Positions 7,517 to 49,873 of a stretch of DNA of 64,000 nt are shown here, piece after piece. The stretch is from a virus, in the IMG/VR virus record IMGVR_UViG_3300028394_000055, positions 1 to 64,000 of that record; one strand, written 5' to 3'. Position 1 is the stretch's first letter. Each line of letters starts with the position of its first letter. Both the position numbers and the translations under genes were made by a program. The notes beneath the pieces were generated by a model. That model was not told the origin of the DNA. It made no database searches and was given only the letters and a program-made list of their open reading frames with translations.

Positions 7517-7574
7517 TAAAAATATTGACATTGTAGTCTAAATGTAATAAATTGTAGTATTACTTGGGGATGCT

Positions 7575-8201
7575 ATGATCATAGGTTTTGTAGGGTTAAT
7601 TGGCGCAGGCAAAGATACTGCCGCTGATTATTTGGTTAATACACACGGGTTTAGGCGAGATAGTTTTGCCAATACACTTAAAGATGCTGTTTCAGCCGTA
7701 TTTGGATGGGATCGAACTCTACTCGAAGGCCGCACAACAGAAGCCCGAGAATGGCGTGAACAACCCGATGAATGGTGGAGCAATCGACTAGGTAAACCTA
7801 TTACTCCACGCTGGGTTTTACAATATTGGGGCACAGAAGTTTGCCGCCATGGATTCCACGATGATATATGGATTGCCAGTTTAGAAAATAAGATGCGTAA
7901 AACTGGCGATAATATTGTTATTAGTGATGTTCGATTTCCCAATGAAATTAAAGCAATTCACAATGCTGGCGGAAAAGTTATCCGTATTAAACGAGGAGAC
8001 GATCCAAAATGGTTTGACGCCGCTATTGCTTTTAATCGAGGACCTGATGGAAATTCTAGATGGGCCCTTAGTAAACAAAAATTAGAAAAAATGAATATCC
8101 ATGCAAGTGAATATTCATGGGCAGGCAGCAACATTGATCACATGGTTTACAATGATACTACAATTGATTCACTGTTTTTACAAATAAAAAATCTATTATA
8201 G
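7575..8201 (+). CDS. Deoxynucleoside monophosphate kinase (T4 gp1-like)
   Basis: GLIGAGKDT P-loop, FA..LK, TPR..LQ..GTE, ISDVRFPNE, HASE. Confidence 0.9.
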   Translation: MIIGFVGLIGAGKDTAADYLVNTHGFRRDSFANTLKDAVSAVFGWDRTLLEGRTTEAREWREQPDEWWSNRLGKPITPRWVLQYWGTEVCRHGFHDDIWIASLENKMRKTGDNIVISDVRFPNEIKAIHNAGGKVIRIKRGDDPKWFDAAIAFNRGPDGNSRWALSKQKLEKMNIHASEYSWAGSNIDHMVYNDTTIDSLFLQIKNLL

Positions 8202-49378: not shown

Positions 49379-49612
49379 TTACAGATTCTCACCAGAGACC
49401 GTATCAATGGCACCAGTGTAGACAGCAACGACGCCGTTGCCTTCCTCAAGCCAGCCATTTATGTTCCAGACGTCACGATGTCGATTGTAGGATTCCACCC
49501 ACATGAGTGCATCCTCACGGGTGTCGAACTCTTCCTCTCCGAGCACCTTGTGATCATTCACATGACCGGCATAGATAGGGTAGATTTGAACATTGTGTAC
49601 GATTGCCATCAT
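49379..49612 (-). CDS. Hypothetical early protein downstream of the structured RNA
   Basis: GGAG RBS abuts the 3' arm of the ncRNA stem. Confidence 0.65.
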   Translation of the reverse strand: MMAIVHNVQIYPIYAGHVNDHKVLGEEEFDTREDALMWVESYNRHRDVWNINGWLEEGNGVVAVYTGAIDTVSGENL

Positions 49613-49618
49613 GTGCTC

Positions 49619-49830
49619 CAGTTAGGAAAAAGTTAGAGGAACTTTGCTGATCAATTCTGAGCTAGCTACTCTCAGATCAATCGCCGTCATTACTGCCTGC
49701 CTATTTCGTCTGCTTCTCCTTGCGGATTGCCATCTTGTAAGTGGAGGAGTAGCCTGCTAAGGCGGGGCTCAAACCCATAATCCCATCACTCACCTAACGA
49801 TGCAGGTAACCTCTAACTCTTTCCTAACTG
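49619..49830 (-). ncRNA. Putative 212-nt structured RNA of unknown class
   Basis: 21-bp terminal inverted repeat with one G-U pair on the minus strand; internal hairpins; no ORF of 60 aa or more; directly behind a perfect sigma70 promoter. Confidence 0.7.
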
Positions 49831-49873
49831 TCTATGTGTGTATTATAACGCACATAGACAGCCTTGTCAACCT

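Follow-up and report, generated by a model that had tools for sequence, protein, structure and literature searches.

What is the 212-nt folded element that lies between a perfect promoter and the ribosome-binding site (RBS) of a small gene in virus record IMGVR_UViG_3300028394_000055 of IMG/VR, and does it act on that gene or in its own right? The stretch analyzed here, referred to as the window, comprises positions 1 to 64,000 of the record (64,000 nt) and carries the element at 49619-49830 on the minus strand.

Architecture of the 212-nt element

A sequence-only reading had described the element as an unclassified structured RNA located directly behind a perfect promoter and its leader, and the description was borne out. 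The promoter (49842-49870, minus strand) consists of TTGACA at 49870-49865, a 17-nt spacer, and TATAAT at 49847-49842; it scores 12/12 against the sigma70 consensus, which is of the Escherichia coli type. The early cassette array contains 23 promoters of this kind, this one included. The 10-nt leader CACACATAGA, read from the sequence at 49831-49840 (minus strand), follows, and transcription probably starts within this leader, a few bases ahead of the element. The RNA has a minimum free energy (MFE) of -78.4 kcal/mol (z = -4.75), and 0/200 shuffled sequences folded as well.

The two ends of the RNA pair with each other to form a stalk, P1, between a 5′ strand (RNA 1-21; 49810-49830, minus strand) and a 3′ strand (RNA 192-212; 49619-49639, minus strand). 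As initially claimed, the stalk has 21 pairs with a single G-U among them, located at position 12, the other 20 being Watson-Crick pairs. The arm pattern was found in the window at these two places only, compared to 0.00 expected from 100 shuffles, and the arm sequence does not recur elsewhere in the window or in the 92.6-kb record. The last two to six bases of the leader pair just past the 3′ arm in many relatives, yielding a longer stalk, which is not the case in the window. The 3′ arm runs into the GGAG RBS of the next gene (49619-49616), the final base of P1 being the first G of the RBS. The rest of the RBS and an open reading frame (ORF) of 77 amino acids, taken from the ORF list, occupy 49379-49618 (minus strand; ATG at 49612) and share the promoter with the RNA in the window phage. 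No terminator-like site was found in the window between the RNA and this ORF.

Inside the stalk, the joiner UUA and the 5′ strands of P2 (CCUGC A) and P2a (UCGUU) make up RNA 22-35 (49796-49809, minus strand), P2 pairing with RNA 131-135 and P2a with RNA 121-125; both helices show covariation in the family described below. The joiner AGG and the P3 domain follow (RNA 36-94; 49737-49795, minus strand), where the fold places two small hairpins within the 7-bp helix GUGAGUG/CACUUAC. The next segment (RNA 95-135; 49696-49736, minus strand) contains the joiner J3/4, the P4 hairpin UCC-GCAA-GGA, the joiner GAGAAGC, and the 3′ strands of P2a and P2, which are separated by a bulge of 4 to 5 nt. The interior ends with J2/5 (CAGUAAU) and the P5 domain (RNA 136-191; 49640-49695, minus strand), comprising a GAC/GUU helix and the hairpin CUGAG/CUCAG, the loop of which carries the palindrome UAGCUA. 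Of the inner hairpins proposed from the sequence alone, GUGAGUG/CACUUAC, GCCU/AGGC, UCC-GCAA-GGA, and CUGAG/CUCAG are present in the fold; GGGUU/AGCCC, which would leave a 2-nt loop, gives way to GGGU/GCCC with a 4-nt loop. The opposite strand of the element folds about equally well (z = -5.66); thus, folding alone does not identify the transcribed strand, and comparative data were needed.

A family of RNAs in giant freshwater phages

Homologues were collected with pattern scans and a covariance model, starting from three independent sequence anchors. The first scan, using the arm against viral contigs, returned near-identical copies and one with a diverged interior; the second, using the arm-junction word, added seven further interiors; and a 19-base word matched 57 loci in metagenome contigs, from which a covariance model built on nine sequences recovered 57 full-length copies, 39 of them distinct. 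All three of these scans fixed part of the 5′ arm, and the search was repeated with GTAGGCAGTAATGAC, from the other side of the molecule, which gave 38 model-confirmed copies (26 distinct). Many stalks in the latter set are wholly different in sequence, such as UAUAUUAAAAUGUAUUAAAGG, AUGUAAACACAAUUAUACAGG, and UACUUUAAAACACAUUUGAGG, and still pair with matching partners over the same 21 positions. In total, approximately 95 full-length copies were identified, representing 65 distinct sequences of 199 to 273 nt with scores of 80 to 213 bits. Variants other than that of the window differ from it through most of the interior.

The window RNA belongs to this family. It aligned to the model over its full length (model positions 1-213) with 144.7 bits (E ∼3e-48), the window sequence itself being among the nine seeds of model R1, and it possesses P1, P2, and P2a together with the joiners UUA, AGG, GAGAAGC, AGUAAUGAC, and GUU, by which membership was judged. 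Forcing it into the family consensus structure yields -77.0 kcal/mol versus the MFE of -78.4 kcal/mol, a cost of only 1.4 kcal/mol. The sole joiner that deviates is J3/4, which reads AAGAUG in the window and AUGAAR in the family.

The RNA was found on contigs of uncultured phages, obtained from lake and other aquatic metagenomes; many of these contigs are 260 to 353 kb long. Two are essentially complete: G001 (353,123 bp, 98% complete) and G005 (346,856 bp, with terminal repeats). Six of the records searched whole carry the RNA, always as a single copy, and two of these six are 98 to 100% complete. The sole exception to single copy that we saw is a tandem pair on contig L162 (80-527, minus strand), where two RNAs that differ in their P3b and P5b hairpins lie 9 nt apart and are followed by tRNA-Asp.

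The search for family members among cultured phages and cellular genomes was negative. In INPHARED, neither the window region nor an AT-rich variant had a match by near or distant blastn. The nearest cultured relatives by tblastn, PA5oct-type phages, Phosso, and Vibrio phage 2.275.O, are approximately 30% identical over one-fifth of a structural protein; the family model matched the Vibrio phage with a mere fragment of 11.5 bits and PA5oct and Phosso not at all. Of two exact core words searched in 185,579 bacterial and archaeal species genomes (GTDB), one had 0 hits and the other a single match in Calothrix; this match scored 7.5 bits, lacks the core, and was rejected as a chance hit. The 212-nt element is one member of a large, phage-only family without an Rfam entry. 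We found no paper describing the family in the literature. Fremin et al. (2023; PMC10690425) report 8,495 candidate structured RNAs from IMG/VR, and the family may be among the thousands of these candidates that are unnamed.

Parts of the window stretch were also found in six metatranscriptome runs, four of which were compared with the window. The element is represented by contigs of three metatranscriptome studies (49570-49849, which differs once from the window; 49577-49833; and 49619-49815); as assembled contigs, they report presence only, rather than ends, strand, or level, and DNA carry-over is possible, and stretches without contig cover carry no meaning. Contigs of run X16 have the 5′ arm of the window and then, from a loose end at 49807, the interior of an L006-type variant, indicating that several variants co-occur in one lake sample.

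Covariation defines a conserved core with exchangeable outer hairpins

The sequence-only reading had proposed a noncoding RNA gene transcribed from the minus strand, to be checked by covariation among homologues, and compensatory changes were found across the helices. In an alignment of 55 sequences, 97.5% of the cells in the core helices P1, P2, and P2a were paired, compared to 42 to 52% when the partners were slid by 1 to 3 columns. Both sides had changed in 20 of the 32 core pairs, and 0/500 shuffles reached any of the five measures used. An earlier set, which was ascertainment-biased, pointed the same way. For P1 in the same 55 members, 97.3% of cells were paired and 15 of the 21 pairs had changes on both sides. 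Among the P1 cells, G-U (133) outnumbered A-C (17), which indicates that the RNA is read from the strand that the promoter serves. RNAalifold, applied to 36 members with like modules, returned 61 pairs, 33 of them with compensatory changes, in support of P1, P2, P2a, and most peripheral helices. The prediction on the same 36 sequences adds a helix between the GAC(N) segment of the invariant AGUAAUGAC and the (N)GUU just ahead of the P1 3′ strand, with covariation in the fourth pair; thus, P5 abuts P1 with zero bases between them. The element is a multihelix, stable-looking noncoding RNA gene.

The stalk is 21 bp long, a length set partly by the model boundaries, and reaches up to 27 bp with its flanks, extending 2 to 6 bp into them in 46/65 variants. 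Within it, approximately 30 unpaired junction bases are nearly invariant, distributed over the joiners UUA (J1/2), AGG, AUGAAR, GAGAAGC, CAGUAAUGAC, and GUU. The segment AGUAAUGA is invariant in the 39-variant alignment, where the G of AGU is conserved at ≥90%, and J2/5 of the family model reads CAGUAAU. The arm of the family consists of P2 (6 bp), a bulge of 3 to 5 nt, and P2a (5 bp), opening into a junction with P3 and P4. P3 is a stem of 7 to 9 bp that is interrupted by an internal loop and ends in a small hairpin with a GACG or GCCG cap. The stem of P4 covaries, its loop being GNRA, UUCG, or another tetraloop in relatives, and some variants carry a large insertion there. P5 combines a large, asymmetric internal loop (GGUAGAsAUAGA) with a terminal hairpin whose loop is often AGACGKU.

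P3, P4, and P5 each exist in several unrelated versions that are freely combined, the outer hairpins having been swapped between lineages. The P3 module of the window is rare in the family; its versions of P3 and P5 are found again in L155 and L131, the former slightly changed, inside a stalk of unrelated sequence. The P5 stem of L155 reads CUAAU/AUUAG in place of CUGAG/CUCAG, and the loop palindrome UAGCUA is kept.

A kissing contact between the P3b loop (GACG/GCCG) and the P5b loop (..CGU/..CGG) was considered and rejected: by hand count it fits 22 of 33 variants and fails in 11, and relatedness explains the agreement. An unbiased search for stacked, covarying column pairs returned only nested helices and G/U-rich noise, and no pseudoknot or other tertiary pairing had covariation support.

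These features bear on whether the core could be a small-molecule aptamer, such as a sponge for a metabolite or nucleotide signal, or a ribozyme. Dense, invariant, unpaired, purine-rich joiners at multihelix junctions do resemble the cores of riboswitches and ribozymes, and a stand-alone unit with a strong early promoter would suit such a function. However, the RNA matches no known aptamer or ribozyme class, shows no covariation-backed pseudoknot or other tertiary pairing, and has neither an expression platform nor a candidate ligand in sight, and we consider this explanation very unlikely.

The covariation and copy number together decide a different question, namely whether the element is selfish or neutral DNA or a small protein gene. 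The 21-bp terminal inverted repeats and the exact position between leader and RBS are what a MITE-like insertion, raised in the sequence-only reading, might look like, and the element contains a 30-codon frame starting with GTG. Nevertheless, there is one copy per whole-searched record, the flanks AUAGA and GAGCA are not repeats, leaving no target-site duplication, and the arms covary as RNA does, with G-U on one strand only, as does the interior; these observations exclude a MITE. No RBS precedes the GTG frame, which other module types do not preserve, and no ORF is conserved in the family that could account for its conservation. Both versions of this explanation are refuted by copy number and covariation, and we give them next to no credence.

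Genomic context of a free-standing RNA gene

The sequences flanking the RNA differ between phages. In the window lineage, the RNA lies behind a consensus promoter, in some phages immediately and in others separated from it by a conserved leader of approximately 115 nt, and in most of these phages the next cassette promoter is located 3′ of it. In L028 and L069, tRNA-Asp starts on the last base of the stalk; in L061, L080, and L035, the RNA is followed by another noncoding block and then by tRNA-Asp; and in the window, the RBS is directly 3′ of the RNA. Three contigs (L088, L063, and L081) carry the window's own RNA variant without the 77-amino-acid gene, the next promoter following at once, and hence the RNA does not serve to regulate that gene. 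Some sister phages have this gene (49379-49612, minus strand) and others lack it; in those without it, the next cassette promoter lies 1 to 4 nt past the stalk, with the junction exactly at the end of the 21-bp stem. The cis-regulatory switch proposed in the sequence-only reading is thus contradicted: the downstream neighbor varies among promoter, tRNA, other RNA, and RBS, which identifies the element as a free-standing RNA gene rather than a switch for the 77-amino-acid gene, and no terminator or other alternative structure that could serve as an expression platform was found at the RNA.

In AT-rich lineages, the RNA is located inside a tRNA array, at its head, in a layout resembling an rRNA operon. 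In G005, the order is two sigma70 promoters, a hairpin, the boxA-like CGTTCTTTAAAAA, a small GCAA hairpin, the RNA, and then tRNAs, of which tRNA-Asp, tRNA-Glu, and tRNA-Tyr begin nine bases past the RNA. The array comprises 22 tRNAs and a predicted tmRNA. A boxA-like sequence, GTTC(T/A/G)TTAA(A/C)AA, is found 45 to 55 nt upstream of the RNA in 18/26 variants of the set obtained with GTAGGCAGTAATGAC. The rRNA operon design serves untranslated transcripts and thus fits a noncoding product.

The same arrangement raises the possibility of a broader cis-acting leader, one that acts on its own transcript only, as an aid to tRNA processing or folding, a 5′ stabilizer or insulator, or an antitermination RNA of the kind of HK022 put or EAR. 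The RNA is always directly behind promoters, at the transcript head, it precedes tRNA-Asp, tRNA-Glu, and tRNA-Tyr in the AT-rich relatives, and no terminator is found 3′ of it. However, many phages of the window group have the RNA by itself between two promoters, where there is no gene for it to control, and the relatives with tRNA arrays already have a boxA-like antitermination signal ahead of it. The roughly 30 invariant unpaired bases and two elaborate arms also exceed the needs of known processing stalks or put RNAs. We regard a cis-acting leader as unlikely.

A second explanation drawn from the context is that the RNA binds or senses tRNA-Asp(GUC), for example, via loops that display the Asp codon GAC(G), as a trans-acting analogue of the T-box specifier. 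A tRNA follows within 400 nt in 25 variants, and in 21 of these the first such tRNA is tRNA-Asp(GTC), across lineages with unrelated stalks and promoters, and GACG is present in two loop motifs, CGACGG (P3b) and AGACGKU (P5b). The window variant and its module relatives, however, lack both loops, and the P3b loop is GCCG instead in many members. No matching changes were seen between position 6 of the P5b loop and position 32 of the tRNA-Asp anticodon loop, the three-base match is weak, and the linkage may reflect inherited gene order. This partnership appears improbable to us.

Comparison with known RNA classes

No match to Rfam 15 was found in the window at the gathering threshold, and a search of 451 bases at E values up to 10 returned only a chance snoRNA (E = 1.7); in the other variants, Rfam matched nothing apart from neighboring tRNAs. 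The element thus remains unclassified, as first described. ARAGORN predicted no tRNA or tmRNA in it, and no tRNA-like module was recognized. By eye, no pairing like the P4 pseudoknot of RNase P RNA was found.

Two of the sequence-only proposals, the retron-like and the 6S-like RNA, concerned known classes in disguise, a wider reading that would make the RNA a retron msr-msd, a 6S RNA, a Y RNA, a fragment of tmRNA or RNase P RNA, or a pRNA of the phi29 type. Retron msr-msd RNAs also have inverted repeats at both ends of a structured noncoding RNA, and repeats of the a1/a2 type are present here as the 21-bp terminal repeats, a feature that is not retron-specific. In contrast to retrons, the next gene in the window encodes the 77-amino-acid protein that sister phages may lack, and reverse transcriptase (PF00078) is absent from G000, G001, G002, G003, and G005, two of which are 98 to 100% complete, whereas control genomes were positive; the retron reading is thereby removed. 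Bacterial Y RNAs (YrlA), which act with Ro60/Rsr, occur in some phages near tRNA genes, and they share with the family their size range and a long stem formed from the two ends, a trait also reminiscent of pRNA. The family differs from Y RNAs in having no Rfam match and no tRNA-like module, and the TROVE/Ro60 domain (PF05731) is absent from five phage records, one of which is 98% complete, although the host may carry a copy; the absence of this protein weakens the Y RNA reading, and the proposed likeness to 6S RNA fails on the Rfam search. As a whole, the known-class reading is largely refuted, and we attach hardly any weight to it.

Three resemblances between core motifs and cellular RNAs were also considered and dropped. 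The combination of GAGAAGC and GUAAU recalls two loops of the GTPase-associated center of 23S rRNA, and AUGGUAG recalls loop E of 5S rRNA, but the secondary-structure contexts differ and no rRNA model matches; likewise, the 5′ and 3′ regions resemble P4 of RNase P RNA, with a different context and no RNase P model match.

Further parallels are found in RNAs that are processed from longer transcripts. Like the family, T4 rnaC and rnaD (species 1 and 2; NC_000866 70908-71171) are phage-encoded, stable, non-tRNA RNAs cotranscribed with a tRNA cluster, and RNase III is known to cleave species 1 RNA. Both T4 RNAs (139 and 119 nt) are located at the cluster tail, and rnaC has a tRNA-like T arm, whereas the family RNA is approximately 210 nt long, lies at the transcript head, and possesses a 21-bp stalk and a different core; the family model, run with filters off on the T4 tRNA cluster, scored at best 4.9 bits, providing no sign of homology with rnaC or rnaD. 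The family RNA is, in kind, to be grouped with the small stable RNAs of phage tRNA clusters, with its own architecture and a far larger comparative base.

Bacterial rRNA operons have tandem promoters, a boxB-boxA leader, and RNase III stalks around 16S and 23S rRNA, an order resembling that in the 347-kb relative, where, as in rRNA operons, the RNA is enclosed by a stalk made of its own flanks and followed by tRNAs. In one relative, TGTTCTTTAACAA matches 12/13 bases of the E. coli boxA. In contrast to an rRNA operon, the enclosed RNA is 210 nt long and matches no rRNA model, and the window copy has no boxA and only a 10-nt leader. RNase III cuts the stalks of rRNA operons as well as the early transcripts of T7. 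The RNase III sites of T7 and T3 are, as in the window, two-turn double-stranded elements between cistrons of an early transcript made by host polymerase; the T7 sites are simple hairpins with an internal loop, whereas the family stem encloses a conserved, folded core of 170 nt that is its main conserved part. P1 has the geometry of an RNase III-type stalk, approximately two helix turns built from flanking sequence, and its 21 bp (27 bp at most with flanks) are kept by covariation. No phage-encoded RNase III was found.

A proposed model for excision and function

The reading that we favor, with a probability of about 0.5, is that the element encodes an early RNA that would be excised by RNase III via its stalk and act in trans through a protein-binding core. 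Host RNA polymerase would make the RNA at the very start of infection, in the window phage from its own consensus sigma70 promoter and in the AT-rich relatives as the first product of an rRNA operon-like tRNA transcript, in which tandem promoters are combined with a hairpin and a boxA-like signal. The two-turn stalk formed from the ends of the RNA itself would serve as a portable processing signal, allowing host RNase III, together with RNase P where a tRNA abuts, to cut the RNA out of whichever transcript contains it; in the window, the cut would also free the downstream mRNA just ahead of its RBS. The excised RNA may then act in trans, its invariant junction core presenting a specific three-dimensional surface to which a conserved partner would bind; the most likely candidate is a host protein acting in RNA metabolism or translation, for which the RNA could be a scaffold or a decoy. 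As a putative RNase III signal, the stalk would resemble those of rRNA operons, T7 early RNA, and T4 species 1 RNA, and the release by RNase III proposed in the sequence-only reading is plausible. The decoy or antitoxin mimic of that reading is a conjecture.

Several observations speak against parts of this model. The phages encode no RNase III of their own. The family member on contig L093 (5034-5232, minus strand) keeps only a few stalk pairs, and the place of its 3′ arm is taken by the -10 box of the next promoter; the stalk is thus not required for the core. The strong linkage to tRNA-Asp could reflect a function tied to the tRNA rather than to a protein. In a distinctly less probable version, which we would call a long shot, the junction core is an active site or ligand pocket, either in a sponge for nucleotide immune signals made in bulk early in infection or in an RNA that recognizes or acts on tRNA-Asp. 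Such an RNA would represent an undescribed kind of phage countermeasure or tRNA-directed RNA.

Under the favored model, a partner that proved to be a host defense or translation factor would make the family a new type of RNA-based takeover tool. The stalk, as a portable module, would allow the RNA to be placed before a tRNA, a promoter, or an mRNA, and giant phages may have copied the cellular rRNA operon design, with tandem promoters, boxA, and a putative processing stalk, for a noncoding RNA of their own. To our knowledge, small stable RNAs of phages have been known since T4 species 1 and 2, and their function is to date unexplained. The family offers a comparative base of at least 65 distinct sequences, with covariation-backed helices, a compact invariant core, and usually a single copy in genomes of approximately 350 kb. 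The cassette of the window lineage is self-contained, with a consensus E. coli-type promoter, and is therefore transferable as is to a laboratory strain, where processing, stability, partners, and structure can be tested without the uncultured host.

Conserved sequences adjacent to the RNA

Additional conserved sequences were observed around the RNA. The tRNA array of G005 (98000-116000; contig L188) has its 22 tRNA genes and the predicted tmRNA, which is of the permuted type (ARAGORN; L188:12822-13311), within 18 kb, interspersed with ORFs for a PNP_UDP_1 phosphorylase-like protein, an RNaseH_like protein (PF04308), a peroxiredoxin, and a Bax-inhibitor-like membrane protein. The noncoding block located between the RNA and tRNA-Asp is approximately 130 nt long, conserved, and starts with AGUUUAGGGUUACUCCAGAACGCAAAGCA (L061:486-616, L080, and L035/L075); in L063 (5759-5773), it lies behind a promoter of its own. 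In L061, L080, and L035, the block folds no better than shuffled sequences (z = 0.17).

The conserved leader of approximately 115 nt between the sigma70 promoter and the RNA (L008:8660-8775, minus strand; also in L009, L018, L023, L046, L056, L057, and L081) includes AUGUAAGAACCCA as well as a hairpin, CGAGUUUAGAGACUCG, and no ORF, and it may represent an additional small RNA. In L072, L038, L068, L078, and L124, the first 60 nt past the stalk comprise GGCAUU, a variable hairpin, and then AUGUAAGUCCAAUC; the word AUGUAAG..CC.A is common to this motif and the leader of approximately 115 nt. Finally, the hairpin ACCCUAC-N5-GUAGGGU, or near variants of it, recurs at unit boundaries, immediately ahead of -35 boxes, in the AT-rich lineages as well as in that of the window (L188:7443-7470 and 7560-7585; the upstream flanks of L055, L069, and L080), and the palindrome had been noted in the window in the sequence-only reading as well. 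This hairpin could act as a protein site or as a terminator lacking a U tract.
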